Positions 27,305-54,633 of a stretch of 64,000 nucleotides of DNA are shown piece after piece. The DNA is from an uncultured virus (IMG/VR IMGVR_UViG_3300001460_000017) (lineage: Duplodnaviria > Heunggongvirae > Uroviricota > Caudoviricetes). The position numbers were made by a program, and so were the translations under genes. Numbering within the stretch: the first letter of the stretch is position 1; each line of letters opens with the position of its first letter. The stretch lies in the IMG/VR virus record IMGVR_UViG_3300001460_000017. One strand, given 5' to 3'. The notes beneath the pieces are model-generated. The model did not search any database, had not been told where the DNA came from, and worked only from the letters and a program-made list of their open reading frames with translations.

Positions 27305-27310
27305 AGTATT

Positions 27311-31278: not shown

Positions 31279-31869
31279 ATGATAGTCCGAATTACAGGAC
31301 ACACAAAAGGCATAGGCAAGTGTTTACATGATGACCTAGTTGCGGAAGGACATGACGTTGTAGGTTATTCAAGAAGCAATGGCTTTGATATCAGCACTCC
31401 AAAATCTAGACAACTTATTATAGAAGAATCCAAACAAGCAGATGTATTCATTAATTGTGCTTGGCCCGATGGTGATTTGCCAATGACAGAACCCGAACAG
31501 TTTGATGGACAAACTGAAATGCTTAAAGCAATGATTCAACTCTGGGAAGGCAATAAAGATAAAAAAATTTTAAACCTAAGTTCTAAATCCTGCTATAACG
31601 ATTCCGACACAAACGACTTCATGGAAAAATATGGCAATGCCAAAAAAGAACAAAATAAAATTGTGGAAAATCGTATCAATGTGTATGGTCCGCATATTCT
31701 TAATGTTATATTAGGATGTACAGATACACAAATCAGCGAGTACATGGAAGGCAATAAAATCGATCCCAATGAACTTTCCAAGTGGATTATTAAAATGTTA
31801 CTGTGTGAAACAATGTATTTTCAAAGTGTAACAATAGATGCTACACAATTAAATTATAAACCTAAATAG
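31279..31869 (+). CDS. short-chain dehydrogenase/reductase
   Basis: ITGHTKGIG, FINCA, YGNAK (YxxxK). Confidence 0.8.
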   Translation: MIVRITGHTKGIGKCLHDDLVAEGHDVVGYSRSNGFDISTPKSRQLIIEESKQADVFINCAWPDGDLPMTEPEQFDGQTEMLKAMIQLWEGNKDKKILNLSSKSCYNDSDTNDFMEKYGNAKKEQNKIVENRINVYGPHILNVILGCTDTQISEYMEGNKIDPNELSKWIIKMLLCETMYFQSVTIDATQLNYKPK

Positions 31870-33004
31870 ATTTTTTCTGTTTTACTTCTGCTTCGTCCCA
31901 ACTTTTCCAAGTCCATTCTGTAACAGCATAATCAACTTGCTCAGGCTGAAACAAATATTGGTTTGGTACAGTGTCGTGTAAATTATAACCTTCATTTACC
32001 ACAGCATCTCTCAACATAATTTGATGTAGAAAATTAGTAACAGGTTTTCCTGGTACAAAATCACACCAAGGACCACACTGTAATTGTTCCATGTCTATAG
32101 TTTTAGGATCACTCCATTGTATTATTCTATGAGTTATTCCATTTATTTTTACCATATAGTGATAAAGATTATCATCTGCTGGTTCTTTTTCCCAAGTCCA
32201 CCCTTTACGATCACAAATATCTTTTATTAATTGCACATGGTCACTTAAAAAGAACTGAGGTTCATCAGGTGATCTTCCTATATCAGAGCCTGCTCTAATT
32301 CTATACTGCCATGCTTTGTTGCCTAATGACTGTATTTCTTCTAACACTTCTTCCATGTGTTCTAAATTTTCTAATGTATATCCTACATAATAAACAAAGA
32401 TGCCTTCAGCAATACAATTTTCAATTCCTTTTAATTGTTTTTCGTGTACTTTTTTACCTTGATAAGAGTGGTGATTCATTCCAATCATAACCATTCTAGT
32501 GCCTGCTTCAGCAATTTCTTTTACCCATTTTTTGTCAGATAATTTTACGCCATTTGTCAATACACATACATCTTCAGGTCTATTCAATTTTTTCAATAGT
32601 ACTTTGATTTGTTTTATAAGTTCTGGCAAGTCTTTACGCACAGTAGGTTCAGCACCTGCTAATATCACAGCACCTGCATCTGCTGAAAATCTATTTTCTA
32701 TTTGCCATAGTATTTGTTCTATTGGTTTATCTGTGGTTTTGTTGTCTGGTTTATGATAGCAGTGCGGACAATTTAAATTACATTTGTCTGTGACTTCCAC
32801 CATAATGCCTTGTGGAATAGAATATCCTGATTTATCATATGTTAAATTATTATAAAATTCTTTGTTGGTTTCTACAAGATAATCACTTACACCATGTTCA
32901 GGACAAGTTTTTATAAGATGTATACCATCTTCTTTAGTAACTCTTTCTGCTTCGCAGTGTCTATAACATATATGACATAGACTGATTGTTTTTGTATCTT
33001 GCAT
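31862..33004 (-). CDS. radical SAM protein with N-terminal metal-binding ribbon (MJ0619/Tes-like architecture)
   Basis: SLCHIC...KTCPEHG; CNLNCPHC; AGAEPT; TNG. Confidence 0.8.
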   Translation of the reverse strand: MQDTKTISLCHICYRHCEAERVTKEDGIHLIKTCPEHGVSDYLVETNKEFYNNLTYDKSGYSIPQGIMVEVTDKCNLNCPHCYHKPDNKTTDKPIEQILWQIENRFSADAGAVILAGAEPTVRKDLPELIKQIKVLLKKLNRPEDVCVLTNGVKLSDKKWVKEIAEAGTRMVMIGMNHHSYQGKKVHEKQLKGIENCIAEGIFVYYVGYTLENLEHMEEVLEEIQSLGNKAWQYRIRAGSDIGRSPDEPQFFLSDHVQLIKDICDRKGWTWEKEPADDNLYHYMVKINGITHRIIQWSDPKTIDMEQLQCGPWCDFVPGKPVTNFLHQIMLRDAVVNEGYNLHDTVPNQYLFQPEQVDYAVTEWTWKSWDEAEVKQKKSI

Positions 33005-33008
33005 AGTA

Positions 33009-33695
33009 TTACTTATAGATAGAAATTGCTTTGTTTATAAATGATTCCGGATACACATTTCTGAAACTTTCTAAACACAATACTTGAAGTTTATCGAATG
33101 AATATGTTTTATTTTCTTGAATATCCAGTTCTTTCATTTTTGGCAACAACGATGCTTGTCTTTCTTTGGATATATGACTCATATGTTCTTTTACTGTGAT
33201 TGCTGACTCTGTTTGATTGTATGCAAAGAAGTAATTGACATTTTTTAATTTTCCATCAATTATAAAATAACTGCTAGGATGAAGACTGTATTTGTAAATG
33301 CCTAGTTTTTTGTGTGTTTCCATTATATACAGCATTTGTTCTTGCCAATCGGGTAATACATCTTCATACGTTTTTCCATGACTTTGTTCCCAAAAATCAA
33401 CACCCTGTATTTCAAAATATATTTTTTGTTCGTCGGAATCAATTTTTGTCAGTCTTGGTATTAAGTTTTTATAATCAACATCTAATGTTAGTAAAAAATC
33501 TTTTTCTCTTATGTATTTCATTTCCATTAATTTAGGATCAACAACTTCATTGTGACCTTTATGATATTCAGAATCATTATGAAACCACATACAAAATTCC
33601 GTAGCATCTTCGTTTATCAAACTAGTATAGATTAAATTGTTTCTACACAAACCCTTGCCAGGCACATTGTTGTAATAATATTTAAAATTATCCAT
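33009..33695 (-). CDS. kinase-like fold protein with degenerate catalytic motifs
   Basis: RE...LIPRL...IYKYSLHPSSY..NYF; apparent paralog of 38574-39200. Confidence 0.45.
   Translation of the reverse strand: MDNFKYYYNNVPGKGLCRNNLIYTSLINEDATEFCMWFHNDSEYHKGHNEVVDPKLMEMKYIREKDFLLTLDVDYKNLIPRLTKIDSDEQKIYFEIQGVDFWEQSHGKTYEDVLPDWQEQMLYIMETHKKLGIYKYSLHPSSYFIIDGKLKNVNYFFAYNQTESAITVKEHMSHISKERQASLLPKMKELDIQENKTYSFDKLQVLCLESFRNVYPESFINKAISIYK
33010..33016 (-). promoter_or_regulatory. late-promoter-like motif ATAAGTA
   Basis: 5 nt upstream of the radical SAM ATG at 33004. Confidence 0.45.
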
Positions 33696-34260
33696 AAGTG
33701 GGCCAAGCCTTTACTTGTTGTAGTTGTTTGAAATATACATCAGCATTCACACGCCATACTGTTTGTTGTGTGCCTCTATAATTTAACTCTTTAACTTTGG
33801 TATAAACACCTGTGCTTTCTAAAGTTGGAGCAACAATTGAATGCACTAGACGTTGTGTGCCTTCTGCATTTTCATTTGTTGTTACATAATAGTTTTTATT
33901 AAAGCCTGCCCACATTATTCCTGCTGGTTGAAAAAATTGTTGGGTAGTTGTTTGATGAGTTTTTATAGTTTCACGAGTACGAACCATTTGATATTCTTTA
34001 GGCAATTCATTTGTAAATGTACATATGCGACAAGCAATACGATAACTGTCAGGACCCATTTCCGGAAACGAATGTGCCGCAGTGGATCCGATCACCTTGC
34101 CATTCCACAACAACATCCAAACCTGATATCTATCTTCTTTAGATAACGAATCTACCAACATTTTTTTGGTTGAATTGTTGACAAATCCTTTTTGGTCGGC
34201 TGTATTATAAAACGTTTCAAGATTTAACTTGTCTGAATATGGTACCAATTTAAAAGCCAT
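33688..34260 (-). CDS. hypothetical protein, possibly GNAT-like
   Basis: 190 aa; WNGKVIGSTAAH...YRIACR pattern; function weakly supported. Confidence 0.45.
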   Translation of the reverse strand: MAFKLVPYSDKLNLETFYNTADQKGFVNNSTKKMLVDSLSKEDRYQVWMLLWNGKVIGSTAAHSFPEMGPDSYRIACRICTFTNELPKEYQMVRTRETIKTHQTTTQQFFQPAGIMWAGFNKNYYVTTNENAEGTQRLVHSIVAPTLESTGVYTKVKELNYRGTQQTVWRVNADVYFKQLQQVKAWPTYG

Positions 34261-34278
34261 AATAAAATATCTATACTG

Positions 34279-34294
34279 TATTTAAAAGTAAATA
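34279..34294. promoter_or_regulatory. divergent pair of late-promoter-like motifs
   Basis: TTAAATA on - (34279-34285) and GTAAATA on + (34288-34294) in a short gap between divergent genes. Confidence 0.55.
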
Positions 34295-34299
34295 CTTTG

Positions 34300-35106
34300 A
34301 TGATTAGAGGAATTGGCGGTCGTCCATATATCAATTTAGACGAACACATAGACATAGAAGGTTTTCAACAACTGCATACAGAAATGTGTAGAGGTTTTGC
34401 TCTTGCTCGTGAATATGCCAAAGAAGGTACATGGATGTCTCCTGGTTTTGATACTAAAGACATGAGTTATACTTTGAATTGGAAACCAATTTATCAAGCA
34501 CTAGAAGAATACAAAGCACTGCCAGAAGATCATCCAATTAGAAAAAATGGCGACGATTTGTATTCTAATATAAAAGATTACAAAACAAGAAATCAATTTA
34601 CAAGATATTTAAAAGCAGTGTTAGGTGCCAATGATCCTTACATATATTATTTTTTATGGGAAGAAGGAGATTGGGATCACAGGAACACAGAAAGACATAT
34701 TACAGAAGAAGCAAAATATTTTCCTGGTGTAGTGGCTTGGATTAAAGAATTAGTGAACACTGGTGTAATAGAAAGTATCGGTAGAGTGATATTTTTTCAT
34801 TGTGAACACGATGGCAAGCCATTTGAACATAGAGATCTAGATGGTAAACACGGCGACAGTCAAGGATACACTGATCACCGTAATGAATTCATACACATTA
34901 GATACAGCACAAAAAGAGGATTCTATATATGGGATCCTGAAGCAAAAAATAAAACTTACATCAATGCCAATGCGGCATTTTGGAACGATCAAGATTGGCA
35001 TGGTGGTGATGTCAGCAACGAACAAGAATACGGCTTACGGATTGACTGTGTGTTTACAGATAAATTCAGAAAGCAGTTGGGCATAGACCATTTATCCAAC
35101 TATTAA
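34300..35106 (+). CDS. 2OG-Fe(II) oxygenase-like protein
   Basis: FEHRD...WHGG...LRID facial-triad pattern. Confidence 0.65.
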   Translation: MIRGIGGRPYINLDEHIDIEGFQQLHTEMCRGFALAREYAKEGTWMSPGFDTKDMSYTLNWKPIYQALEEYKALPEDHPIRKNGDDLYSNIKDYKTRNQFTRYLKAVLGANDPYIYYFLWEEGDWDHRNTERHITEEAKYFPGVVAWIKELVNTGVIESIGRVIFFHCEHDGKPFEHRDLDGKHGDSQGYTDHRNEFIHIRYSTKRGFYIWDPEAKNKTYINANAAFWNDQDWHGGDVSNEQEYGLRIDCVFTDKFRKQLGIDHLSNY

Positions 35107-35107
35107 A

Positions 35108-35719
35108 ATGTATCATCGATATGTAAAAATACCAGTTGACCACAGAAAGCCTAGTTGCTTTTCACATCAACCCTCGCAGTCAGAAGTTATATTTGTTCCT
35201 AAAACAGATATTGATCAAGCAGTTATCAACTGGATTGAATCCTTTGATGTAGTTGTATCCAATGTAACTGAAGGTATCTATACACCTCCTAACAAAGGAA
35301 AGGTACACATACACAACGATACAAGTACAATAACCAATGCAACAAAAATTAATTTTACATGGGGTCCTGATACCAGCACTACAAGGTGGTGGCGTGTAAA
35401 AGATGAATCATTGTGTAAAACAGACATCACTGACAGTTCACACATAACAGAAATAGTAAATCCAGACATTGTGGATCACTTTGATGAAAACAATCAGCAT
35501 CGTGAATTAATTTGTGAAAGTGAACAGGATTGTGATATGATGCATGAAAAGGTTATTAATCAGCCCAGTTTGATAAACGTTGGTCAACTGCATTCTACAT
35601 ATAATCCAGATCCCACACATGGACGTTGGTCATTGTGCTATTTTTTACTTAATAAAGATTATACCCATTTACAGTTTGAAAAAGCATTAAATATATTCAA
35701 GGAAGTCACATATGAATAA
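35108..35719 (+). CDS. 2OG-Fe(II) oxygenase-like protein
   Basis: HIHND...LHSTYN...RWSL; tandem paralog of next gene. Confidence 0.7.
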   Translation: MYHRYVKIPVDHRKPSCFSHQPSQSEVIFVPKTDIDQAVINWIESFDVVVSNVTEGIYTPPNKGKVHIHNDTSTITNATKINFTWGPDTSTTRWWRVKDESLCKTDITDSSHITEIVNPDIVDHFDENNQHRELICESEQDCDMMHEKVINQPSLINVGQLHSTYNPDPTHGRWSLCYFLLNKDYTHLQFEKALNIFKEVTYE

Positions 35720-36347
35720 AAACATATATCACCGTTATGTAAAATTGCCGTTTGAGCATAAGTTTCCAGATTGTTTTAAAGCAAAGCCTGAAAATATGCG
35801 TGGCGAAAATTGGCATGAATGGTGTGCTACAAGAGAACATTGGGATGAAAGGTTTGTGGATTGGCTAAAAGAATATGGCTTAAAACCTTCAAATGTTTGT
35901 GAAGCATTTTACAATGGACCTAATGGCGGTGGTTTACCTATGCACAATGACGCTCCCACTTTAAATAATTCATCAAACATAAATTTTACTTGGGGACCTC
36001 AAGACAGCATAGTAAGATGGTACAAAGTAAAAGATGAATCTTTAATTCAAACAGAAAGAGATAATACAGATTATCACAAAGAAGTTTATTTTAAAGATGT
36101 AGATATCGACATTCCAGTAGATAAATTTTATCATGCAGAAGTTGAAGACTGTGATGTTGTGCATGAAGCAGTTATCAGTCAACCTAGTTTACTCAATGTT
36201 GGGCAACTGCATTCAACACATAATTTTAATACAAACGAACCACGTTGGACTTTAAGTTATCATTTGCTAACAATTAAGGATAACACACACATACAATTTG
36301 AAGATGCACTAGACTTGTTCAAAGATCTAGCATACGAAAGTAATTAA
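35712..36347 (+). CDS. 2OG-Fe(II) oxygenase-like protein
   Basis: PMHND...LHSTHN...RWTL. Confidence 0.7.
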   Translation: MNKNIYHRYVKLPFEHKFPDCFKAKPENMRGENWHEWCATREHWDERFVDWLKEYGLKPSNVCEAFYNGPNGGGLPMHNDAPTLNNSSNINFTWGPQDSIVRWYKVKDESLIQTERDNTDYHKEVYFKDVDIDIPVDKFYHAEVEDCDVVHEAVISQPSLLNVGQLHSTHNFNTNEPRWTLSYHLLTIKDNTHIQFEDALDLFKDLAYESN

Positions 36348-36353
36348 TATTTT

Positions 36354-36908
36354 TTAGGAACGTCTAACATCAAGTGTAGAAATATACATTGATTCATCAA
36401 TAACGTAATCAATTGTGCGTATAATATCTTGTGCAGTACAAGTGGGCTCTCCGCTTCGGTCACCAGTTTTCTCGCCATAGTTTAATACTCTAACAAGACT
36501 GAACTTTAATTGTTTTCCGAATGGAGTTTGATTTGCTAATGCGTTGTGTACAGCATCTATATGATGTTTGTCTTTTAGATATTGTTTGTCGATACCAACT
36601 TGATCTAATAATTTTTTAGGAACTTTTGTTGCTAGTGATCCTATTGTGATAACTTTACGCAAAGGTGCATCGTGTGTCCAACGTTGTTGTAACTTCATTA
36701 ATAATACGGACTGTGAAGCACCTACGTGTGCTATGTTTAAAAATACATCTCTAGCCAACACTTCACTGACTGTGTCATTAATACTGTCTGCGTTTGTAAA
36801 ATCATATCCTGTGGCTCTGCTAATACCTAAGCACTCGTGTGTTTTGGAATAATGTTCATGCACATCTTTTCCCATAGGAGATGTATGTCCTGTGATTGCT
36901 ATTCTCAT
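36354..36908 (-). CDS. short-chain dehydrogenase/reductase
   Basis: ITGHTSPMG, FLNIA, YLKDK; paralog of 31279-31869. Confidence 0.7.
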   Translation of the reverse strand: MRIAITGHTSPMGKDVHEHYSKTHECLGISRATGYDFTNADSINDTVSEVLARDVFLNIAHVGASQSVLLMKLQQRWTHDAPLRKVITIGSLATKVPKKLLDQVGIDKQYLKDKHHIDAVHNALANQTPFGKQLKFSLVRVLNYGEKTGDRSGEPTCTAQDIIRTIDYVIDESMYISTLDVRRS

Positions 36909-37483
36909 ATTACTGTAAACCTCACAATTTGTATAAATCTGCTATCCTCTTCTAGTCCTGAACCGTATTCTTCCAGTTCAAACATTATTGGATGCATTCC
37001 TCTGTAATAAAAATCTTTTTCAGCAAATATTCTTCTACCACCTTCTACCTTTTCATTTACTAATATTGCTTCACCATTCAGTTTGAAATGAAACATTTCA
37101 TCAAGTATGCCAAATTTTTCATTAAAACTTTTGTAATCATCGTTNTTGGTTGTGTTTAAGTTGTAACAAAATTGAAAGTTCCAAGTATCTTCTTCTTTGC
37201 GGTTCAATTTTATTTCAGCATTTAATTTAATACTTTCTTCATTGGCCCAAGTCTGTGTGTTGTCTAGTATTAATGTGTTGTTATCAAGTAGATCAATATC
37301 AACTGTACGTTTGATAAAACCGTTCTCGGCAGTTTCTTTGCTTGATTGTATGTCTTTAAAAATATTGTTGTTGTTCCAATACACATTCAATTCATCTTTT
37401 AAAAGACCTTCTGATACAAATTCATTTGCATCATAACTGGATCTCAATAATGGAAAGTAATCAAATACAAGTTTCTTTTTCAT
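36905..37483 (-). CDS. hypothetical protein
   Basis: Start re-called to ATG 37483; contains ambiguous base N at 37145. Confidence 0.6.
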   Translation of the reverse strand: MKKKLVFDYFPLLRSSYDANEFVSEGLLKDELNVYWNNNNIFKDIQSSKETAENGFIKRTVDIDLLDNNTLILDNTQTWANEESIKLNAEIKLNRKEEDTWNFQFCYNLNTTXNDDYKSFNEKFGILDEMFHFKLNGEAILVNEKVEGGRRIFAEKDFYYRGMHPIMFELEEYGSGLEEDSRFIQIVRFTVI

Positions 37484-37484
37484 T

Positions 37485-38039
37485 TTATCTTTTAGTTCCA
37501 AAGAAGTTGAAGATGTATTTGGGTCTTTGTCCGCAGTTGGATCCGGCGTGCCAAGCATTTCTATCTGGCCATTTGTACACATCACCTGCTTTGGCATTGT
37601 AATACAAATCATCTTCCACAATTAATACGTGTCCAGGGTGTGTATCTTCCATGTGTACATGAAATCTTTCTATGTTGTTTAACTTACATAGTTCTTCTTC
37701 GTTGTCTTGTGTGTCCCAGTGCCAAGGAGCATGATTTCCTTGATGCACAACACTAACCCAACAACTTAAAACATCAACTCCAACGTAATCTGCAAATTTA
37801 TCTACAACACTTCTGTCAAAATTAGTTTCAGGTATGCACATATCCCAACCAATTGTGCCGCCTTCAGATGCCAGTGTGTATCCTGCTTTGTCCCAAGACT
37901 CACTGATCTCTTTTATACCTGGAAGATCATCTTGCTTTGTGTGTCTTGGTCCTTGATATGCTGGTTCAGAATTCTTTATGGATTCAACAACTGCATTCCA
38001 GTCTATTACATCACTACAATTTCCTACGTATTGTTTCAT
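37485..38039 (-). CDS. 2OG-Fe(II) oxygenase (Asp/Asn beta-hydroxylase-like)
   Basis: APWHWD...WHAGSN...KYIFNF. Confidence 0.75.
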   Translation of the reverse strand: MKQYVGNCSDVIDWNAVVESIKNSEPAYQGPRHTKQDDLPGIKEISESWDKAGYTLASEGGTIGWDMCIPETNFDRSVVDKFADYVGVDVLSCWVSVVHQGNHAPWHWDTQDNEEELCKLNNIERFHVHMEDTHPGHVLIVEDDLYYNAKAGDVYKWPDRNAWHAGSNCGQRPKYIFNFFGTKR

Positions 38040-38581
38040 TCTGCGTATGCCAAGTAATTAAAATTAAATTTAGGTACAAGTCCACAATTAGTTCCACCAT
38101 GATATGATTTAAAGTCGGGCCACTTGTGAACATCTCCTTGTTTTTGATTGTACAATGCTTCGTCGCCTACTATAAACACGTGTCCTGGTGCAGGTTCATT
38201 AATCATTGCTGTGAATCTTACAGGATTGCCTTGCTCTGTGTATTTTTTCCAATCAACGTCCCAGTCCCAATGCCATGGAGCAGTTTTTCCTGGATATATT
38301 TTGGATATCCAACTCTTAATCATTCTTGGTGCACCAACAAACTCGCCAAACTTCTCAGCCACCTCCATTGGAAACTCATTGCCTGGATAGTAATTGATCC
38401 ATTCTATAGATTCTCTGTTGTAACTGCCTATAGTAGATAATGCATCATCAATCTCTTTTAATTCCGGTACATCTTTGACTGGAAGATATTTACAAGCAAG
38501 TTTACCTTCTTGATCTTGCACTTCTTTAATGATTGCGTTCCAGTCTAATATATTATTACAGTTGCCTACAAATTCAAGCAT
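38036..38581 (-). CDS. 2OG-Fe(II) oxygenase (Asp/Asn beta-hydroxylase-like)
   Basis: APWHWD...YHGGTN...KFNFNY; tandem paralog. Confidence 0.75.
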   Translation of the reverse strand: MLEFVGNCNNILDWNAIIKEVQDQEGKLACKYLPVKDVPELKEIDDALSTIGSYNRESIEWINYYPGNEFPMEVAEKFGEFVGAPRMIKSWISKIYPGKTAPWHWDWDVDWKKYTEQGNPVRFTAMINEPAPGHVFIVGDEALYNQKQGDVHKWPDFKSYHGGTNCGLVPKFNFNYLAYAE

Positions 38582-39200
38582 TTAAAAAATCTCCTGGCCA
38601 CTCTGCATAATTGGTTTTAATTGTTTCTTTGTACAATTCGTGAGTGTCTAATTGGTTATTCAATATAAATTTATCAAATCTATCTGTTCTAATTAATGGT
38701 TTTAGATATTTTATATCAAGATATCTGTTGTCATTGTCTGTACAACCATATAAATCCATACAGTGTGCTTCGTTATTGTCGTCAAAGTAGAAAGTATGAG
38801 GGTACATATTGATTTTGTATATGTTTTGCTGTTCTAAATCTTGTTTTATCTGTTTAATTTTTTCTTTCCAGTTAGGTATGCTGTCTATTTGATTTGTTTC
38901 TATTAGGACATTAAGACTTTTGTTATACCATTTGAACTTGATCTCTCTTTTATCGTAATCAATATCCAATAATTCTGGAATATACTTTGCGCCTTTAAGT
39001 TTAGAAAGGTATACCACTTCTTGATCAAACCAGAAGTTGTAAAGTTCTTCATTCATGGATTCGTTGTTGAAATAGTCATTTGGATTCCAATTCATACAGA
39101 ACACATTGTTGTCTTCGCTAACAAGAGGCTGGTAAAGCATATTCGCCACAGCGAGACCTTTTTTATATTTGTAAAAATTATTCCAATTAGGCATATACAA
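38574..39200 (-). CDS. kinase-like fold protein with degenerate catalytic motifs
   Basis: QE...YIPELL...IYKINMYPHTF...MDLYG. Confidence 0.5.
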   Translation of the reverse strand: MYMPNWNNFYKYKKGLAVANMLYQPLVSEDNNVFCMNWNPNDYFNNESMNEELYNFWFDQEVVYLSKLKGAKYIPELLDIDYDKREIKFKWYNKSLNVLIETNQIDSIPNWKEKIKQIKQDLEQQNIYKINMYPHTFYFDDNNEAHCMDLYGCTDNDNRYLDIKYLKPLIRTDRFDKFILNNQLDTHELYKETIKTNYAEWPGDFLNA

Positions 39201-39864: not shown

Positions 39865-39867
39865 TTG

Positions 39868-39911
39868 TACTTATCGTAAATTATAATATGTGTAGTTAAT
39901 AGCGATAAATA
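39868..39911. promoter_or_regulatory. divergent pair of late-promoter-like motifs
   Basis: ATAAGTA on - (39868-39874) and ATAAATA on + (39905-39911). Confidence 0.55.
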
Positions 39912-39924
39912 GAAATGTCCATAT

Positions 39925-47228: not shown

Positions 47229-47871
47229 ATTTTTTAATACTCCTATCCAATAATTCGTTAAATTGTTTTCTTTTATTGCCAATGTGTGCTTGAGCAATCA
47301 TGTGAACTCTTTCAGCATTGGCGTTGTTTACTACTTGATGATCTTTTAGTATGTTAATTAAAAATACTTTACCATGTTTCCAAGGCACTATTCCATGATC
47401 TTTAACTTCCATGTAACACAGTGCTGGGTGCATCACAGCAACATTTATAGGTATTAAGTATTCACAAAGATCATCTGGTAACGGATGTCCTGGATCATCA
47501 TTGTGCCAATCTATTTTTCCTGCAGGATTTAATTTCATAAAACGTATTCTACTGTATCTTTCTGCTGGAAAGTCTTCCCAAAACTTTTTTGCTAATGGAG
47601 TATCTACTTGAAGACTGGTCCAATCATACGGAGCATTTAGTTCATCTTCATATCCATATTCTTTTGCAACTCTTGTTTTGTCTACATCTAATCCATGCAA
47701 ACAACAACTTTCCCAACCTTTATGAGTTTCATCTTCTCTATGCTCCACGTAATGAGCATTTACATTATTAAATTCTTTTGTATCTAAATAATCCATAAAA
47801 TTTATATCCAGTTCTAGCCAAGGCAGACTGCCGTCTTTAAATTTGTTAAAAACTTTGGTTGCTGTATCCAT
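47212..47871 (-). CDS. Asp/Asn beta-hydroxylase-like 2OG-Fe(II) oxygenase
   Basis: RIRFMKL.P.G.IDWHND...HQVVN...RVHMI. Confidence 0.75.
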   Translation of the reverse strand: MDTATKVFNKFKDGSLPWLELDINFMDYLDTKEFNNVNAHYVEHREDETHKGWESCCLHGLDVDKTRVAKEYGYEDELNAPYDWTSLQVDTPLAKKFWEDFPAERYSRIRFMKLNPAGKIDWHNDDPGHPLPDDLCEYLIPINVAVMHPALCYMEVKDHGIVPWKHGKVFLINILKDHQVVNNANAERVHMIAQAHIGNKRKQFNELLDRSIKKYGISI

Positions 47872-47872
47872 A

Positions 47873-48478
47873 TTATTTCTTATGTCCTATAATCATAAAT
47901 CTGTTATACTTCTCTGTAGATAATGAAGCACTTGATTCAACAACAAGTCCACAGTCTTTTTCAAATTCTTTCAGTGACTGTTTGCAGTTCACGTGTTCTT
48001 CACAGTCAAAGAAATCATTACTTTGTAAAACAATTCTTTTATTGCTTGGTAATTTGGCTAGCCATTCGTTGTATTGTGTTGGAGTCATATGTTCGCACAC
48101 AGTATTAATAATTAGATTATGTTTGTCATAATTGTTATATAACACCATATCCGATGTGATTGACTGAAACCTTCCTTGTATTTCATAATCTTTGTTCATT
48201 ATGTTTGCCACTGATTCACATTTACTGTCTATGTCCATACTAGTAACCCGAGTAATATCTAACTCACTGTTAAACAATAATGTTGCTAAAACACCATTCC
48301 ATCCGCCACACAATAAAATATTGTAAGGAAGATTTTGTTGATATTTTTCCAAGTAATTGATCAACCAAACTTTACTATTGATTTGTCCTTTCCAGAAACT
48401 TTCTAATGTACGATGCTTATCATCAGACTGTCTGATTGCGTCCATCCAAAACATCACATCTGTAATATTAATCTTCAA
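47873..48478 (-). CDS. class I SAM-dependent methyltransferase-like protein
   Basis: ILLCGGWNG, SMDID, IINTVCEH. Confidence 0.65.
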   Translation of the reverse strand: MKINITDVMFWMDAIRQSDDKHRTLESFWKGQINSKVWLINYLEKYQQNLPYNILLCGGWNGVLATLLFNSELDITRVTSMDIDSKCESVANIMNKDYEIQGRFQSITSDMVLYNNYDKHNLIINTVCEHMTPTQYNEWLAKLPSNKRIVLQSNDFFDCEEHVNCKQSLKEFEKDCGLVVESSASLSTEKYNRFMIIGHKK

Positions 48479-49454
48479 ATTGAGCTCCTAGTTTATCAAA
48501 AGAACCACACTGTTTACCACACTCTTGCAATGGCGTATGACCCCAAGTTTTTTCAATCTTATCAAAGTATCCATTGTTAAATATTTCTTTTAGACTATGT
48601 TTATTTAAATTAGGAAATTCTCCAATTCTGTCCATGTAATCTATTCTACTTGCCTGATAAGGCGGAATCCATTCCATATCTAACCAACAGCAAGGAGATA
48701 TATTACCACAAGCACTCACATACAACTGACGATTTTTTACTGCTTTACATATAATAGTTGGCGTAGTTTCATTTTGTGATTCTTTTACTAAAGGTATCAT
48801 CTCTGCACTTTTTTGTGTGGGTTCTAATTTGTGTAAAGGATTACCTTTCTCATCTATTACTTGCAAAGCACCTTGATGAAATCTTGATGTATGTTTAGTA
48901 GTAAATGTTTTAAATCCTAAATTTTGAGACATCTCCCTTGCCTCTTCTACTTGATGTTCATTGTGTTTGAACACCAGCATATGCCATTTAGCAAATCCAC
49001 CTTCTTCGATAAATGCGTTAGCATTACCTATAATTTTGTCAAAATCTGTAGATATTCTATAAAGATGATTAGTATCCTTTAAGCCATCTAATCCAAAAGT
49101 AACTTTTACATTTACTTTTGCTAACTTTCTCCACCATTCTTTATTTTTAGCACTTCCGTTTGTGTGCATGGCAAGTCCTATTCTAGGATTGACTGCTCGT
49201 AGGTGTTGGTATATTTCTAATGTGTCTTTGCTGACAATTGGGTCTCCTAAATTTCCGCACATAAACAAACTGTCTAATTGTTTAATAAAATCTTCAGGAA
49301 ACCATTTTTTAAATATTTCTAATGTAATATCATCTAAATGTATAAAAGGATTTAATGGACCGCCATTTATTCTTCTAGGACACATAGGACATTTGGCTTG
49401 ACATCTACTAGTGATTTCTAAATGAATATCTCTTATATCTTCCAGTTTATACAT
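48468..49454 (-). CDS. radical SAM/SPASM protein
   Basis: CQAKCPMC; GNLGDP; HTNG; ICKA...PCC...CGKQC. Confidence 0.85.
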   Translation of the reverse strand: MYKLEDIRDIHLEITSRCQAKCPMCPRRINGGPLNPFIHLDDITLEIFKKWFPEDFIKQLDSLFMCGNLGDPIVSKDTLEIYQHLRAVNPRIGLAMHTNGSAKNKEWWRKLAKVNVKVTFGLDGLKDTNHLYRISTDFDKIIGNANAFIEEGGFAKWHMLVFKHNEHQVEEAREMSQNLGFKTFTTKHTSRFHQGALQVIDEKGNPLHKLEPTQKSAEMIPLVKESQNETTPTIICKAVKNRQLYVSACGNISPCCWLDMEWIPPYQASRIDYMDRIGEFPNLNKHSLKEIFNNGYFDKIEKTWGHTPLQECGKQCGSFDKLGAQFED

Positions 49455-50460
49455 TTATTGTTTCCTTCTGTCTTGATTTAGGGATTTTACTATCAGCAGA
49501 ACTGACGCAAGTTGGTGTTATACATTTACTAGGATTTTTAAATAATTCAAATCCTTCATCGATTGTTCCTAACGGTTCATCGTGACAACTGTATGCTCTT
49601 TTAATTTCACCTCCCGGCTCTCTTACAATACAACTTTGATACCCTGCATTACAATTCCAACCTTGAAACTTATTGAATCCAAAAGCATTGAATCTTTCTG
49701 CTTGATCTAATTCGTAAAAATTATCTTTGTTATCCATAAGGCTTATTTGACCAATTGCTGATCCATCATTTTTCTTTAATGGAAATCCTGTTTTCATTAA
49801 TTCTATTTGCTCGTCACTGTAACCTGATACAATTTCACTTGCTGATTCATTGCTTTGTGGTTTTAATGTGACGTTTATTCCTCTATCGTTAAATCTTTTA
49901 CATCTATCATATAGTTCATTAAACAGTTCTGGAACCATTACTTGATTAATTGTAACATAAACTCCTGCATCTGTTAACATTAAAAGTTTATCTCCAAAAG
50001 TTTGTTCATCTGCAAATTCGTGATGGTAACTTGCAGTTATGCTTCTACGCATTAAGGACTCTGTGGCTTTAAGCCAAGTTTTCCACCATTTCATTCCTGG
50101 CGAACAATTTGTTGTCATGTGAATACTTTGATATTTACTTTTTTCATCTGAGGCATAATGACCAATCAAGGGCAAGAATCTTTTGTATGCTGTTGGTTCT
50201 CCACCACTAAAACTAAAATGAAACTTATCAAACCCATTACTTCGTGCTTGAGATTTAATTTCATCCATTGTTTTTTTATAAACTTCTAATGGTCTGTGGT
50301 CTACTTTTTTAGAATGGGCATAGGGCCAACAATATGAACAATCATAGTTACAGAATCTGCTTAATATCCAACTCACATTGAATAAATTTTTCCATATCAT
50401 TGTCCGTTGTCCAAACTGGATGATATCATGAAAAGGTATTTTAGTAGTAGGTACTGACAC
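49447..50460 (-). CDS. radical SAM protein with C-terminal Cys cluster
   Basis: GTG start after GAGGAG; CNYDCSYC; SGGEPT; CNAG...SCH...CITPTC. Confidence 0.85.
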   Translation of the reverse strand: MSVPTTKIPFHDIIQFGQRTMIWKNLFNVSWILSRFCNYDCSYCWPYAHSKKVDHRPLEVYKKTMDEIKSQARSNGFDKFHFSFSGGEPTAYKRFLPLIGHYASDEKSKYQSIHMTTNCSPGMKWWKTWLKATESLMRRSITASYHHEFADEQTFGDKLLMLTDAGVYVTINQVMVPELFNELYDRCKRFNDRGINVTLKPQSNESASEIVSGYSDEQIELMKTGFPLKKNDGSAIGQISLMDNKDNFYELDQAERFNAFGFNKFQGWNCNAGYQSCIVREPGGEIKRAYSCHDEPLGTIDEGFELFKNPSKCITPTCVSSADSKIPKSRQKETINV

Positions 50461-51130
50461 TGCAGGTCTCCTCAAAATGTTTTTTAAGCCAATCAAAATC
50501 ATTAATGTAATTCAGTTTGTCTTTGTTTTCTGTGCCGAATTTTTTACCTGACTTTGCTCCTTCAATTGCAAAGTCTCCGTAAGGTCTATCTGCACCTTTG
50601 CTACACCATACATCTAATCGATGTTCTGTTTCATTGTCTTGTTGTCTGTCAATTATTTTAGAACTTAATTTTACACACTCTCTAAAAGCACTTTTCCACG
50701 CACTGAAAGGATCTGAATTAAATGCTGTGATGTTTGATACTTGCTTAATTGCTTTAAAGTTTTTAGAAATACTTGTAGTCATATCAGTTGTGGTTGTATT
50801 CATATCTAAAGTTAATTGCTTTGGTAATAATTTTACTCCGCCATATCCATATTGTAAATCATTTATAGGATTGCGACTTTGCCACACATGGACTGTTTCT
50901 AAATTGTATTGGTCCACGCTGTAATCGAAATTAAAGTCATCTACTATTTGAGCATCTGCATCAACTACCCAAAACATTTTTGTCATGGATACTTCTGCCG
51001 CTTCTATATGTGCTTTGTGAATTCCTTTCACTCCTTTTACTCGTTGAGCAATAGGAAAACGTTCACACAACGTTTTATAATTGTGATCTGCTAAATCTTC
51101 ATTGTAACTTATAAACACAATGTCATACAT
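50441..51130 (-). CDS. GT-A fold glycosyltransferase-like protein
   Basis: DIVFISYNE, WVVDAD (DxD), AWKSAFRE. Confidence 0.65.
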   Translation of the reverse strand: MYDIVFISYNEDLADHNYKTLCERFPIAQRVKGVKGIHKAHIEAAEVSMTKMFWVVDADAQIVDDFNFDYSVDQYNLETVHVWQSRNPINDLQYGYGGVKLLPKQLTLDMNTTTTDMTTSISKNFKAIKQVSNITAFNSDPFSAWKSAFRECVKLSSKIIDRQQDNETEHRLDVWCSKGADRPYGDFAIEGAKSGKKFGTENKDKLNYINDFDWLKKHFEETCSVSTYY

Positions 51131-52038
51131 TATCTTGTTTTCCTCATTATTCTTGGAGTATTAAGATACACTTTCTTAAAAAACTTACTCTGTGCTTCAC
51201 TTAATGGAGTTATGGGTAAGTCAATCTCGTGTTCAGCATTGATCTTTTTACCTAGTTCAATACTGTCTTCATAAAAGTCAACTTTAACGTCATCATGAAG
51301 TTCAAACTTCCAATACTTTTCAAAGAATCTATATTCGTTTGCTTGACCGATGTCCCAATCTGTACACATTGTAAGATAACATCCTGTTCTTGCTCCATGA
51401 ATAGCATGAATGCCGTAAGGATTATCCATACCCACTGTCATCCATACAAGTAATCGTTGATAGTTTTGCCACCATAAGTCTTTTGGTGCTTGTCGAACAT
51501 TTTTATCCAAACTCATTTTAACACCTTCTCTAAATCCTGCTCTCCAAGCCTGGTATGCAGATCCATCTATGTGACTGATTGAATGATTATCGTTGAATTG
51601 ATAGTAATTTGGAAAATGACAAAACTCTATTACATTTTTATTTTCACTATCTGCTTCGCCATCGTGATTTTCATGCGTCCGCATATTTTTTACAAAATCT
51701 TGTGTCCAACATTTTAGACTGCCATTGCCGTATTTTAATCCGTTAAGTTCTATATGCCCACACCAACTAAATTGATAAGTGTTGTCTAGTTTCAACTCAT
51801 CCAAATCAACAGTTGCATCTAAAAAACTGTCATGCACTTGCGTATCAGCATCAACTGTGATAAATCTGTCTGATGTAGATATTTCTGCCGCTTTTTTATG
51901 TGCAGTATCAAATCCTTTTACACCGTGTACACGTTTTGCCCAAGGAATTTTTCTTTTTAAATCAGCAAAGTTTTTTTCAGCATTTGGCTCGTCAACACTT
52001 AAGAACACAAAATCCATATCAGATACTTTTAAAATCAT
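51130..52038 (-). CDS. GT-A fold glycosyltransferase-like protein
   Basis: DFVFLSVDE, ITVDAD, AWRAGFRE; paralog of adjacent gene. Confidence 0.65.
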   Translation of the reverse strand: MILKVSDMDFVFLSVDEPNAEKNFADLKRKIPWAKRVHGVKGFDTAHKKAAEISTSDRFITVDADTQVHDSFLDATVDLDELKLDNTYQFSWCGHIELNGLKYGNGSLKCWTQDFVKNMRTHENHDGEADSENKNVIEFCHFPNYYQFNDNHSISHIDGSAYQAWRAGFREGVKMSLDKNVRQAPKDLWWQNYQRLLVWMTVGMDNPYGIHAIHGARTGCYLTMCTDWDIGQANEYRFFEKYWKFELHDDVKVDFYEDSIELGKKINAEHEIDLPITPLSEAQSKFFKKVYLNTPRIMRKTR

Positions 52039-52631
52039 TGTGTTACCTCATATGAGTAATTGTAAACTTTTCTACAAAACAATCTTGGTATTTGATTAGA
52101 GTTGTGATCAATTTGAACATTACCAACAGCACACAATTGTGTCATGTCTACTTCAAATGAATATTCAGGCACACTGGTATTGTTTTTTGGAGTTGTAAAA
52201 AATTTAAATATAAAATTGTCTTGTGTAACTGTGTTCTGTATTACATTCTTTAATTCATCATCTATACTGATATTCCATTTTTTATTTTTCATATCTAATA
52301 CAAATCTAACACACGAATCAGTATCATTTTTTCCTATTTCATAAATTACTTTGTTGATGTGATCATCTGTTTTTACATCATTTTGTAATTTATTATTTTC
52401 AACAAACAATGATTCAACAACATATTCGGTATTTTTAAATACTACTCTGTAATCCGTTAATTCTTTTGTTCCATTGTGTATTCCATCTGCCAGTTCTTTT
52501 GTAATTTCTACACTGTGTCCTTGATGTTGTACACTGCAACCAAACACGTCTCCTGTTTCAATATCAAAATGAAAATAATATTTTACTTTAGGACGTATTA
52601 CGTCAAATTCCAATGGCGGTCTTATATACAT
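52035..52631 (-). CDS. hypothetical protein
   Basis: 198 aa ORF overlapping both neighbours. Confidence 0.65.
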   Translation of the reverse strand: MYIRPPLEFDVIRPKVKYYFHFDIETGDVFGCSVQHQGHSVEITKELADGIHNGTKELTDYRVVFKNTEYVVESLFVENNKLQNDVKTDDHINKVIYEIGKNDTDSCVRFVLDMKNKKWNISIDDELKNVIQNTVTQDNFIFKFFTTPKNNTSVPEYSFEVDMTQLCAVGNVQIDHNSNQIPRLFCRKVYNYSYEVTQ

Positions 52632-53449
52632 TTCAGTTGCTCCAGCATATTATCTGTTAAAAAATTATCTTCCACATAGTGAAACAAACCTTTTTGCTTA
52701 ATATTACCTACAAATAATTCGCTTTGTGAATTGAGGTTGTAATCTATTTGCTCAGTCCATAAATTTAATTCACTTTTATAGTTTTGTATTCGAGGTTTCA
52801 TGTGTGTAAATGTTAAATTAGAGTGCTTACTAAAAACTTTGTGTTGTATTCCTAATAATTTGATTGCTATTGCTGTGGCAACATCCATACTGCACCAAGA
52901 TTGTGTTCTATTTTTTGTAAAACGTTTGCTGTATTGTTCATAGTTAACTACTATATCTGTTAATAAATCAAAAAACACCTTATTGTTTTTACATTTTTTA
53001 AAGTAGTGAAATCCACAATACACATTGGGCAACGAATTTTCTACAAATACTTTTCTATAATAATCATCTGAAACCCATTCATTTCTATATGTTTTTACTT
53101 TGTCTGTGTAATACAATTCATATTTGCTCAATTGATCCCACCAATGTTCTATATTTTCTAACAATAACATATCTACATCTAGCACAATGGATTGTTCAAA
53201 TGGACTATTTCTATAAATTTTGCATCTGTTGTTGACTTTCCATTCACTGTCAACTGCTAGATCTAATCCTGGTATATCTTGAATATGATCAAAATGTTTT
53301 TTATAGTTTTCAGGAACATCAATGTCTGTCATTAAACATATTTGATCATCGGGCATAAACTTTTTAATACTCAGACTACAAGCCACTGCTTGTTTTAAAT
53401 AATCAGAAGTATTGTTCTTCTGCACAAATAATATAAAACCTCTATTCAT
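52622..53449 (-). CDS. GT-A fold glycosyltransferase (GT8-like)
   Basis: YLKQA...SIK, SPFEQSIVLDVD (DxD), FTHMK. Confidence 0.7.
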   Translation of the reverse strand: MNRGFILFVQKNNTSDYLKQAVACSLSIKKFMPDDQICLMTDIDVPENYKKHFDHIQDIPGLDLAVDSEWKVNNRCKIYRNSPFEQSIVLDVDMLLLENIEHWWDQLSKYELYYTDKVKTYRNEWVSDDYYRKVFVENSLPNVYCGFHYFKKCKNNKVFFDLLTDIVVNYEQYSKRFTKNRTQSWCSMDVATAIAIKLLGIQHKVFSKHSNLTFTHMKPRIQNYKSELNLWTEQIDYNLNSQSELFVGNIKQKGLFHYVEDNFLTDNMLEQLKCI

Positions 53450-54254
53450 ATTGATCTATAATCTTATTCAATCCTATTTTGTTCATTATGTGTATGTTCA
53501 TGTCTTTGATTTGACACTTTGCTCCTCGTTCGAAAGTAAAATTCCATTTACTGTCTACATACGAATCTACACTGTCTTTATCTGTGGTGTAAAACAGTTT
53601 GCTAGGCAATTGCTTGGGCCAATTAGTTTTAGCAAAATCATTAATCATATGAATTGCTATGGCAAATGCAAAATCATTTCTATAAATTGAGTTTTCAATT
53701 TGATATTTGAACCTGTAGAATTCCCATTCATTTTTTATGTGATTGATTAATTCAAATAAAATTTTAGTTCTTTCAGTTTTTTTAAAATAAAACACTGTGG
53801 CCCAACACATTTCAATACCTGTATCACTCACGTATTTCATTTCTTCTGTGTATTTGGATTCAAAGTCTATGTGTTGTGCTTTGTAGTTGATTAGAAAATC
53901 TTCTTTGCTTTTAAACACTTTGTTGAGATTGCTATTTGCCACAATGTAATCTGTATCCATCACAATGGTTTCATCGTATGGAGTTAAAGAATATGCATCT
54001 GGTCTAGAAGTATTGTTCCAAGAATCTTCATAACTCTGTGTAGCATTGTAAAATCTTTTTGTTTGAGCAGTGCTTGGTTTTTCTACCACAATCACATGAT
54101 TAAAATTGTTATGATCTTCGTTGAATTTGTCTGATGTAATCAAACACACTGGCAAATCAAGATGTTTTTTAATCTGACCTGCACAAAAATTAGCCTGTTT
54201 AACATAATCCACAGTGCTATTATTATGAGCAAAAAGTAAAACCCCTTTGGTCAT
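53442..54254 (-). CDS. GT-A fold glycosyltransferase (GT8-like)
   Basis: YVKQA, TPYDETIVMDTD, RNDFAF, HIMNK; paralog of adjacent gene. Confidence 0.7.
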   Translation of the reverse strand: MTKGVLLFAHNNSTVDYVKQANFCAGQIKKHLDLPVCLITSDKFNEDHNNFNHVIVVEKPSTAQTKRFYNATQSYEDSWNNTSRPDAYSLTPYDETIVMDTDYIVANSNLNKVFKSKEDFLINYKAQHIDFESKYTEEMKYVSDTGIEMCWATVFYFKKTERTKILFELINHIKNEWEFYRFKYQIENSIYRNDFAFAIAIHMINDFAKTNWPKQLPSKLFYTTDKDSVDSYVDSKWNFTFERGAKCQIKDMNIHIMNKIGLNKIIDQYE

Positions 54255-54604: not shown

Positions 54605-54633
54605 ATTATACTTGATTTTTGGATATAAGTCAA
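54605..54633 (-). promoter_or_regulatory. sigma70-type promoter
   Basis: TTGACT-17 nt-TATAAT on minus strand. Confidence 0.7.

Follow-up and report, generated by a model that had tools for sequence, protein, structure and literature searches.

What would a phage make with seven radical S-adenosylmethionine (SAM) enzymes set among oxygenases and transferases between its tail-fibre genes? The question is raised by a 64,000-nucleotide stretch from an uncultured member of the Caudoviricetes (IMG/VR record IMGVR_UViG_3300001460_000017), which we refer to as the window. An earlier reading of its letters, the original prediction, had picked out positions 31279-54254 as a late-expressed, biosynthetic-cluster-like pathway that would place unusual glycans or other modifications on virion proteins, and those limits agree with what we find there: 29 open reading frames (ORFs), numbered g2 to g30, packed tightly with intergenic gaps of at most 60 nt. 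We consider it fairly probable that this island encodes a soluble, cytoplasmic pathway for making, editing and transferring an unusual sugar. The argument starts from what can be observed in the window and its relatives, namely the enzyme families, the conservation of the cassette, the linkage to uridine diphosphate (UDP)-sugar genes in relatives, and the solubility of the encoded proteins.

Transcription alternates in direction along the island, in six blocks: g2 (+), reached by readthrough from g1; g5-g3 (-); g6-g8 (+); g14-g9 (-); g15-g18 (+); and g30-g19 (-). The last of these truly opens one gene further outward, at g31 (54257-54592, - strand, 111 aa), the first gene of the long enzyme operon, which is kept ahead of g30 in the related viral loci L037, L158 and L159. 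Fibre genes do flank the island, as had been claimed, with matches to Mtd_N, tail-fibre PHROGs and Collar. On one side is g1 (30174-31274, +), a tail-fibre-like gene and not an enzyme (Pfam Mtd_N, 48.6 bits), and on the other a structural block that begins with g32 and the first fibre gene (54642-57002, -, the fibre gene itself at 55524-57002), with tail-fibre PHROG matches and a Peptidase_G2 C-terminus. A hydrophobic 19-mer scoring at least 1.6 was found in none of the 32 proteins, and no membrane segment is predicted in the island proteins, so the chemistry of the island should be cytoplasmic.

Radical SAM enzymes

All seven radical SAM ORFs were confirmed. Genes g3, g17, g18, g19, g20, g24 and g25 have one CxxxCxxC motif each, and their products match Pfam PF04055 at 38.5-71.5 bits (cutoff 29.5); an eighth radical SAM gene of the window, QueE-like, lies outside the island at 22019-22915. 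The seven are of four kinds. The N-terminal-twitch enzymes g17 (41329-42747, +) and g20 (44585-45898, -) are full-length members of NCBIfam NF033640 (N_Twi_rSAM, cutoff 170 bits), scoring 393.8 and 324.4 bits over positions 1-397 and 2-396 of a 398-position model. In both, a Cys-rich domain precedes the CxxxCxxC core, which starts at residue 162 in g17 and 135 in g20; Pfam SPASM is matched at residues 33-111 of g17 (21.6 bits, against a threshold of 21.5) and 24-84 of g20 (37.4 bits). Since NF033640 has no described reaction, membership names these two proteins and explains nothing.

The second kind, about 320-350 aa long with a Cys-rich C-terminus, comprises g18 (42744-43706, +; about 320 aa; Radical_SAM 43.5 bits), g19 (43696-44649, -; 50.7 bits) and g25 (49447-50502, -; 46.0 bits). 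Gene g24 (48468-49454, -) stands apart with a C-terminal SPASM domain (Radical_SAM 39.4 bits, SPASM 26.0 bits), and its profile found no match in the PDB. The last kind is g3 (31862-33004, -; Radical_SAM 71.5 bits), with an N-terminal zinc ribbon of Tes/TrsS/HMPTM-like type (Zn_ribbon_HMPTM, 42.2 bits); its nearest solved chain is the tetraether-lipid synthase GDGT-MAS (7tol, E 2.7e-19).

We considered whether the block might be a defence or anti-defence system and rejected this, since PADLOC gave only partial matches of radical SAM cores to its pVip models. Six of the seven proteins match these models significantly at 29-58 bits, mostly over the N-terminal third to half of their 257-262 positions, and g24 leaves a faint trace (E 2.5e-4). 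On the NCBIfam model viperin_w_prok (cutoff 180 bits) the same comparison gives 26.4-52.1 bits for six of the seven and no match for g24.

Transferases and epimerase-like enzymes

The original prediction had named four glycosyltransferases (GTs), and these are supported, one pair by a fold model and the other by a profile match. Genes g26 and g27 (50441-52038, -) are paralogues (hhalign 100%) with an invariant D57-x-D59. Their profile matched nothing in the PDB; the predicted model of g26 (pLDDT 89) has a GT-A fold, with Foldseek matches at E ~1e-4 to RmlT, ppGalNAc-transferases (ppGalNAcT), K4CP and TarS, and VIA Z values of 9-11.4, highest over residues 1-138. The second pair of paralogues, g29 and g30 (52622-54254, -; hhalign 100%), is GT8-like, with a profile match to glycogenin-1 (E 3e-8) at profile positions 6-107, where D91 is at least 90% conserved and D93 is invariant; none of the 11 members of this family reaches any GT Pfam model at E up to 0.1.

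To these we can add g21 (45846-47228, -), which matched no family by sequence and whose model (pLDDT 88) has two domains. The N-terminal half (residues 9-225, VIA Z ~10) is GT-A-like and would be the fifth such transferase-type domain in the island, and the C-terminal half (residues 219-428, Z 8.6-8.8) resembles a class I methyltransferase. It has 572 homologues, none of them named. An Atlas lead in which g21 was fused to an Asp/Asn hydroxylase (688-aa cluster, score 0.83) was discarded, as the best 120 of the 572 homologues all measure 473 aa or less.

Both short-chain dehydrogenase/reductases (SDRs) that had been proposed also stand. The product of g2 (31279-31869, +) is a short SDR/epimerase-like protein of 196 aa that passes Pfam Epimerase (28.9 bits against 20.9), and g9 (36354-36908, -) is its short SDR-like paralogue (hhalign 99.4%), with homologues that match Pfam Epimerase and RmlD_sub_bind.

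Oxygenases

Seven ORFs had been read as 2-oxoglutarate (2OG)-dependent oxygenases resembling Asp/Asn hydroxylases, and the HxD...H motif is indeed conserved among the homologues of all of them (g6, g7, g8, g11, g12, g14 and g22). The assignment is firm for g22 and g14, weak for g11 and g12, and a matter of the conserved motif alone for g6, g7 and g8. Gene g22 (47212-47871, -) encodes an oxygenase of the Asp/Asn beta-hydroxylase family (Pfam Asp_Arg_Hydrox, PF05118, 33.0 bits against 22.6) and is the usual partner of g21, both in phages and in the bacterial loci L094, L111 and L148. The product of g14 (39187-39864, -), an Fe/2OG beta-hydroxylase of Asp/Asn-hydroxylase type, falls under the same Pfam cutoff at 16.9 bits; its profile matches Cpz10 (7v4f) at E 7.9e-18. 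Both g14 and this closest solved relative are small, single-domain enzymes of Asp/Asn-hydroxylase type, although the alignment is limited to the C-terminal ~100 residues and Cpz10 belongs to an actinomycete nucleoside-antibiotic pathway. Cpz10 is the Fe/2OG beta-hydroxylase of caprazamycin biosynthesis and is described as hydroxylating a small (glycosylated-)nucleoside-type intermediate (PMC9814697). Because that substrate is a small molecule, the argument of the original prediction that Asp/Asn hydroxylases imply a protein substrate is weak.

The tandem paralogues g11 and g12 (37485-38581, -) are probable small cupin/2OG-type oxygenases with invariant H107, D109 and H164. Their profile matches Cpz10 weakly (E 0.03), g11 alone of the two weakly matches a PADLOC 2OG model (E 9e-4), and hhalign joins g12 to g14 at 65%. 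Gene g6 (34297-35106, +; conserved H178-x-D180...H235) represents a dark family with no Pfam domain and no informative name, matched by at least 1000 database proteins at E up to 0.001. It is unusually well conserved, the best 120 matches being 263-272 aa long and 57-94% identical (most 57-74%). The tandem paralogues g7 and g8 (35108-36347, +; hhalign 100%) conserve H69/D71/H162. Neither the g6 profile nor that of g7/g8 found a match in the PDB, and no PDB, Pfam or profile link ties g6 or g7/g8 to the Asp/Asn beta-hydroxylase family (PF05118). Over all 253 family pairs, hhalign linked only g7/8, g4/13, g29/30, g26/27, g11/12 and g2/9, plus g12-g14, and the seven oxygenase candidates are therefore not demonstrably one superfamily by sequence.

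Outside the island, among genes of nucleotide metabolism, is a further 2OG-Fe(II) oxygenase (19106-19705; Pfam 2OG-FeII_Oxy_3, 29.6 bits); PHROG 274, which this gene also matches, carries the label DNA endonuclease V.

The cassette in viruses and bacteria

A search of IMG/VR with g17 returned 262 related stretches, from which we kept 80 loci. Island families account for 967 of the 1292 ORFs called in these loci, and radical SAM ORFs number six per locus at the median and 12 at most. Gene order is shuffled and a core is kept, consisting of g26/27, g24, g25, g23, g17, (g18), g19, g20 and g15, with g19 present in 79 of the 80 loci and g23 in 76. On these comparisons the island is old and widespread and behaves as one module. 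Near-identical DNA (96-99% of sampled words) occurs in marine and estuary metagenome runs from at least seven studies, some of which may be the source of the window itself. A near-identity search with the whole island against 50,697 phage records gave no match, and tblastn with g17 against the phage collection gave only four weak ones (22-24% identity).

One pointer to sugar in the viral relatives is a UDPG_MGDP_dh-type dehydrogenase (UGDH). Of the 16 viral loci that have it, 15 place it between genes of the core. The usual order is g24-g25-UGDH-epimerase-g23-g17, and a full-length NAD-dependent epimerase/dehydratase lies beside the dehydrogenase in most of the 16; the relatives concerned are a sub-lineage. 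Other genes added in relatives encode an FkbM methyltransferase, a B12-radical SAM enzyme, a TauD-type oxygenase and an APH-type kinase.

Among prokaryotes, scanned at one genome per species, there were 152 relatives, of which we kept 77 loci, 60 of them labelled as Bdellovibrio-type lineages (Oligoflexia included). A sub-core of g26/27-g17-g24-g25-g23 is found in Bdellovibrio-type chromosomes at 35-56% identity, on contigs of up to 2.5 Mb, and often adjoins arrays of further N_Twi paralogues. Identity to Bdellovibrio-type homologues is 42-49% for g17 (best homologues, L081-L105) and 48-56% for g25. The families of g4-g8, g10-g14, g16 and g28 occur in none of the 77 bacterial loci.

Six of the bacterial loci were examined closely, and sugar genes adjoin the cassette in three (L096, L113 and L137), where the neighbours include GT2 transferases, a full-length NDP-sugar epimerase/dehydratase, a DegT aminotransferase, a carbamoyltransferase and another QueC-like gene. 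Distant N_Twi loci have sugar genes in three of seven cases. One of these has an NDP-hexose 2,3-dehydratase and FdtA; in two distant loci there are a GT4, UbiA and three to five PhyH oxygenases, accompanied in one of the two by a methyltransferase and an epimerase. Judging by the bacterial loci, the grouping of auxiliary-cluster radical SAM enzymes with several Fe/2OG oxygenases, a methyltransferase and transferases is not peculiar to phages but recurs in bacteria.

Four Bdellovibrio-type loci, Oligoflexia among them (L124, L128, L108, L132), hold arrays of four to seven N_Twi paralogues spanning 5-21 kb, and the remaining cassette genes are often absent. Three contigs of metagenome-assembled genomes (MAGs), L106 (80 kb, binned as Acidimicrobiaceae), L113 and L137, have at least 10 radical-SAM-like matches in about 20 kb, with island families in phage-like order; these may be phage contigs binned with bacteria.

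A proposed sugar pathway and its steps

The sugar chemistry of the biosynthetic cluster first proposed thus finds support in the GT-A and GT8 transferases, the SDR/epimerase-like enzymes, the UDP-sugar genes in the cores of relatives, and some of the bacterial loci. The five transferase-type domains argue in the same direction, as does the relation of g14 to Cpz10, whose reported substrate is a small intermediate of glycosylated-nucleoside type.

Several observations weigh on the other side. No Pfam family at all (E up to 0.01) is matched by 19 of the 29 island ORFs. None of the island's radical SAM enzymes is tied to a sugar substrate, the nearest solved chains being generic ones (SkfB, GDGT-MAS, BlsE, MoaA and viperin). 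Nucleotidyltransferases, IspD and GlmU among them, have the GT-A fold too and reach the same scores, so that the fold of g26 suggests sugar transfer and does not establish it. The bacterial evidence is uneven too: in the Bdellovibrionales loci L083, L088 and L093 the neighbours are mostly unannotated, with a SIS-domain gene in L083 as the sole hint of sugar, and four of the seven distant N_Twi loci have no sugar genes nearby. Finally, the window holds no nucleotidyltransferase, no full-length sugar dehydratase and no UGDH, both the UGDH and the epimerase of the relatives being absent here. The sugar donor would therefore have to come from the host or from elsewhere in the genome, which we estimate at about 350 kb because CheckV puts related contigs of 72-124 kb at 20-35% completeness.

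We infer each reaction, and the acceptor, from the families described above. In the pathway we propose, g2 and g9 would tailor sugar or sugar-nucleotide intermediates, and the seven radical SAM enzymes would carry out C-H chemistry, for example epimerisation, dehydration or deoxygenation, C-methylation, or C-C coupling. Hydroxylation would fall to the cupin-type Fe/2OG oxygenases, and methylation to g23 and the C-terminal half of g21. The QueC-like PP-loop protein g15 might activate a carboxylate, perhaps for amidation of a uronic acid, while g4 and g13 (kinase fold) and g16 (SGNH-like) could contribute further tailoring. The product would then be attached to its acceptor by g26, g27, g29, g30 and the N-terminal half of g21.

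Where the sugar might go

Two acceptors come into question, and each is tentative. The sugar could be placed on the phage's own fibre or virion proteins, or, with the same degree of doubt, on a host envelope glycoconjugate of lipopolysaccharide (LPS) type. A virion target is suggested by adjacency to the fibre block (in the window and four of five long related contigs), by the lack of membrane segments, and by a generic fold likeness to a virus capsid glycosyltransferase. The original prediction had named synteny with fibre genes across related phages as a check. In four of the five long related contigs the fibre block lies 3.6-6.5 kb from the end of the island; the fifth has no match to either fibre query. 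The absence of membrane segments fits the glycosylation of virion proteins before assembly and peripheral enzymes acting on lipid-linked host intermediates equally well.

The capsid enzyme in question is A64R of PBCV-1 (PDB 2p72/2p73), among the best fold matches of both the N-terminal domain of g21 (Z 9.7-10.0) and g26 (Z 9.5-9.6). It is a soluble, virus-encoded GT-A enzyme that works in the cytoplasm on virion proteins, although many other GT-A and nucleotidyltransferase chains match just as well, and the sequence identity in these matches is 8-10%. Virion glycosylation in mycobacteriophages has reportedly been described by Freeman et al. in 2023. Neither the PBCV-1 nor the mycobacteriophage system is known to have arrays of radical SAM enzymes or oxygenases such as those of the island.

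GT8, kinase-fold and Asp/Asn-hydroxylase-family enzymes all have counterparts in LPS-core biosynthesis, of WaaJ, WaaP and LpxO type. Solubility, fibre adjacency, these LPS-core counterparts and the view of the pelagimyophage authors (discussed below) that a host O chain is modified do not decide the matter, and we split the acceptor about evenly.

A more specific version of the virion acceptor, which we regard as speculative, is that the phage decorates its receptor-binding fibres itself, with a glycan whose sugars radical SAM and Fe/2OG enzymes have remodelled. The numerous paralogues (N_Twi, g18/19/25, g7/8, g11/12, g26/27 and g29/30) would let related phages vary their coat quickly. If this is correct, a cassette that predatory Bdellovibrio-type bacteria also have would supply variation in host range or immunity evasion at the level of enzymes. 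The product would be the first radical-SAM-dependent virion glycan, and the NF033640 family would gain a function.

Other possible products

The product might instead be a diffusible small molecule, aminoglycoside-, nucleoside- or cofactor-like, directed at the host or at competitors and bound to no macromolecule. Similar genes are interpreted as "antibiotic synthesis genes" in a cyanophage paper (PMC12801897), and the relation of g14 to an enzyme of the caprazamycin nucleoside-antibiotic pathway, the appearance of BlsE (blasticidin pathway) among the radical SAM matches, the resemblance of g3 to the Tes/HMPTM clade and the presence of a QueC-like enzyme would all suit such a product. Five transferase-type domains would be many for it, however, the island has no exporter, resistance gene or membrane protein, and its position beside fibre genes is kept in the window and four of five long contigs; we consider a free small molecule unlikely.

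Rather improbable, in our judgement, is a modification system that works on protein or peptide without sugar, in which SPASM/twitch radical SAM enzymes and hydroxylases would cross-link, hydroxylate or methylate a fibre or host protein or a peptide resembling a ribosomally synthesised and post-translationally modified peptide (RiPP), the transferases playing a minor role. The SPASM or twitch domains of g17, g20 and g24 would fit, as would the kinase-fold pair and the weak NCBIfam similarity to the peptide maturases SkfB, PapB, XyeB and ScmE/F, all far below cutoffs. Twitch and SPASM enzymes act on sugars as well, however, and BlsE is among the matches. The pairing of hydroxylase g22 with transferase g21 recalls the collagen lysyl hydroxylase/glycosyltransferase LH3, which is among the fold matches; we looked for collagen-like repeats as a target of such a pair, and no G-X-Y run of at least six repeats was found in any frame. 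The gaps of 60 nt or less leave no room for a RiPP precursor, the smallest ORF (g31, 111 aa) is not Cys-rich, and UDP-sugar genes are embedded in the core of relatives.

Very improbable is hypermodification of DNA, in which oxygenases, transferases, methyltransferases and the PP-loop enzyme would decorate phage bases to escape restriction: base-modification genes elsewhere in the phage (GTP cyclohydrolase I at 21352-22026, QueE-like at 22019-22915), the QueC-like g15 and a sigma70-type promoter, presumably early, would suit it, but Pfam, PHROGs and NCBIfam gave no match of an island protein to a DNA-binding, TET/JBP, DpdA/Tgt DNA glycosylase/transglycosylase or nucleotide kinase family, the oxygenases belong to the cupins of Asp/Asn-hydroxylase type, and the same cassette is found in bacterial chromosomes, beside glycan genes in some.

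Promoters and the timing of expression

According to the original prediction, several island units open with the late-type motif of the structural genes, while replication and deazaguanine genes use TTGAC/TATAAT promoters. The degenerate 7-mer on which the first part rested has 53 copies in the window, against 125 expected by chance. A strict form, ATAAATAY, is also under-represented, with eight copies (14.4 expected), at 2071, 2760, 3406, 15406, 25310, 30136, 57020 and 61905, and seven of the eight are sense-strand copies placed 5-35 nt ahead of a start codon. The motif precedes the fibre gene g1 (ATAAATAC, 31 nt upstream) and the structural-block genes at 57002 (ATAAATAT, 18 nt upstream and recurring in L158 and L159) and 61884. 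It likewise precedes four non-structural genes (2102, 2772, 3448 and 25327), and no copy lies inside the island. ATAAATAY is thus a candidate phage-specific promoter element serving structural and non-structural genes, which we take to be "late" only by its resemblance to the T4 late promoter.

What the island does contain are weaker TAAATA/TAAGTA variants, before g5, g6, g14 and g15. Between g5 and g6 two TAAATAC motifs diverge (34278-34295), TTAAATAC on the - strand for g5 and GTAAATAC on the + strand for g6; g14 has ATAAGTA and g15 has ATAAATAG. The variants recur before the same genes in L028 (TAAATAT between g5 and g6) and before the g14 homologue in L037.

The second promoter class, TTGAC-N16-19-TANAAT, occurs 10 times in the window against 2.0 expected, a count reached in none of 100 shuffles, always on the sense strand, and eight copies fall in the half of the window devoted to replication and nucleotide metabolism. 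A ninth (52580-52606) is inside g29, at its 3' end, and stands 25 nt before the g28 start. With the tenth, a perfect sigma70-type TTGACT-17 nt-TATAAT (54605-54633, -) that ends 13 nt before g31, the largest island unit, g31-g19, opens. A promoter is kept at this spot in three relatives (TTGACA-17-TATAAT in L159 and L037, TTGATT-17-TATAAT in L158), yet the proteins are only 30-55% identical. The 12-gene operon that it serves includes all of the transferases and four of the radical SAM genes.

The notion that the island is expressed late is weakened accordingly. An element in common with the fibre genes is plausible for three or four small units, but the transferase operon has a sigma70-type promoter of the replication class, so for half of the island the promoter sequences point away from late expression, which is not established. 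These promoters predict that the transferase operon would be transcribed by unmodified host RNA polymerase and that the fibre genes would depend on ATAAATAY. Near-identical pieces of the enzyme operon and fibre genes also occur on contigs of four RNA-labelled libraries from three studies; as these are assembled contigs from libraries that may contain DNA, we set them aside as evidence of expression, and they show neither transcription nor its timing.

Other genes of the island and the window

Two ORFs had been called degenerate kinases, and a protein-kinase-like fold is supported for these paralogues, g4 (33009-33695, -) and g13 (38574-39200, -), by profile matches to TTK kinase (E 1.7e-7) and Bud32-type kinases (E 2e-3); the canonical HRD Asp is not evident, the catalytic motif of g4 is non-canonical, and "degenerate" seems a fitting word. 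The methyltransferase g23 (47873-48478, -) is a lead, from Atlas look-alikes automatically named methyltransferase and a Gly-rich loop (G58-G59-W-G62). At the level of motifs g16 (40704-41336, +) is an SGNH-like hydrolase, with conserved G-C-S15 and D188-x-x-H191, and it has no family match in Pfam or NCBIfam.

The QueC-like enzyme of the original prediction is g15 (39925-40731, +), a PP-loop ATP pyrophosphatase with a conserved SGGxDS and a C-terminal Cys cluster, which adjoins g20 in many relatives. It matches no Pfam family (E up to 0.01); five homologues score 15.9-22.0 bits on Pfam QueC (threshold 22), and a paralogous form in L064 scores 31.3. No family match was found in Pfam, PHROGs or NCBIfam for g5 (33688-34260, -; homologues in 12 of the 80 related loci) or g28 (52035-52631, -). 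Gene g10 (36905-37483, -) contains the single N of the window (position 37145); its first listed start (37621) overlaps g11, and the ATG at 37483 is the likely start. When 81 divergent homologues from the dark families were scanned with Pfam, the only additions were sub-threshold Asp_Arg_Hydrox and QueC matches, plus Epimerase matches.

Beyond the island, the genes of the window are those of a large phage, with a family-B DNA polymerase (44-48% identical to those of the jumbo phages Phosso, Atu_ph07 and 121Q), ClpP, a GMP-reductase-like protein, rubrerythrin, peroxiredoxin, GTP cyclohydrolase I, the QueE-like enzyme, a MoxR-type ATPase and the tail-fibre block. GTP cyclohydrolase I (157 bits) overlaps the QueE-like radical SAM gene (PHROG 2076, E 9e-51), and this pair (21352-22915) represents, apart from the island, a pathway of deazaguanine type. 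We saw no canonical QueC in the window, whose sole QueC-like gene is the divergent g15 of the island. A redox and nucleotide cluster at 3448-7073 encodes a ferredoxin-annotated PHROG (278 bits), peroxiredoxin (Redoxin), rubrerythrin and a GMP-reductase/IMPDH-family protein, so that oxygen-stress genes share a genome with many oxygen-sensitive radical SAM enzymes and oxygen-requiring 2OG enzymes. At 26113-28570 a gene for a DUF2201 metallopeptidase/VWA protein comes after that for the MoxR-type AAA ATPase, and each has a sigma70-like promoter sequence in the gap before it (TTGACT... in the gap 26004-26112; 27276-27304). The cassette of the Bdellovibrio-type locus L088 likewise has an AAA_3/MoxR ATPase nearby, together with a DUF58 protein.

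Comparison with known systems

If the island does make and transfer a sugar, widespread marine giant phages devote about 7% of a ~350-kb genome to carbohydrate chemistry that has not been described. In the island, transferases and oxygenases are combined with radical SAM families of which at least three have no known reaction, and the five gene families of its compact core, which Bdellovibrio-type bacteria share, lend themselves to expression and assay. In the literature on radical SAM enzymes in phages, on Bdellovibrio and on glycosyltransferase clusters we found no paper that assigns a reaction to the cassette. The two-domain structure of g21, the support for GT8 and GT-A transferases, the relation of g14 to Cpz10, the kinase fold of g4 and g13, and the split between promoter classes are new here.

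The closest published descriptions are of the host recognition clusters (HRCs) of marine T4-like phages and of radical SAM genes in two Campylobacter phages, and a function is assigned in neither. Campylobacter phages CP220 and CPt10 have 11 and 12 radical SAM genes, five of them in a central module that is exchangeable (Timms et al. 2010, PMC2853527). They belong to another phage lineage and infect another host, no link to sugar genes is reported in the accessible text, and no Campylobacter phage was among our four weak g17 matches in the phage collection.

The HRC of pelagimyophages and cyanomyophages is a large and variable island among tail-fibre genes, with several glycosyltransferases, GT8 being the commonest, and radical SAM cassettes (PMC7029224). 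Zaragoza-Solas et al. (2020) also list an Asp/Asn beta-hydroxylase among the core pelagimyophage genes; they favour modification of the host O chain, the function being untested in their account (PMC7029224). Our island too combines glycosyltransferases with radical SAM cassettes and has fibre genes on both sides. The HRC phages differ in being T4-like, with the island described as lying between VrlC and the neck gene gp14, whereas the DNA polymerase of the window is closest to those of non-T4 jumbo phages of the Atu_ph07, Phosso and 121Q kind. Also unlike the HRC, the island has seven radical SAM enzymes, two of them NF033640 members, and a defined core shared with Bdellovibrio-type bacteria. 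It bears in this way on the question that the HRCs of pelagiphages and cyanophages raise, whether it is the surface of the host or the virion that is altered.

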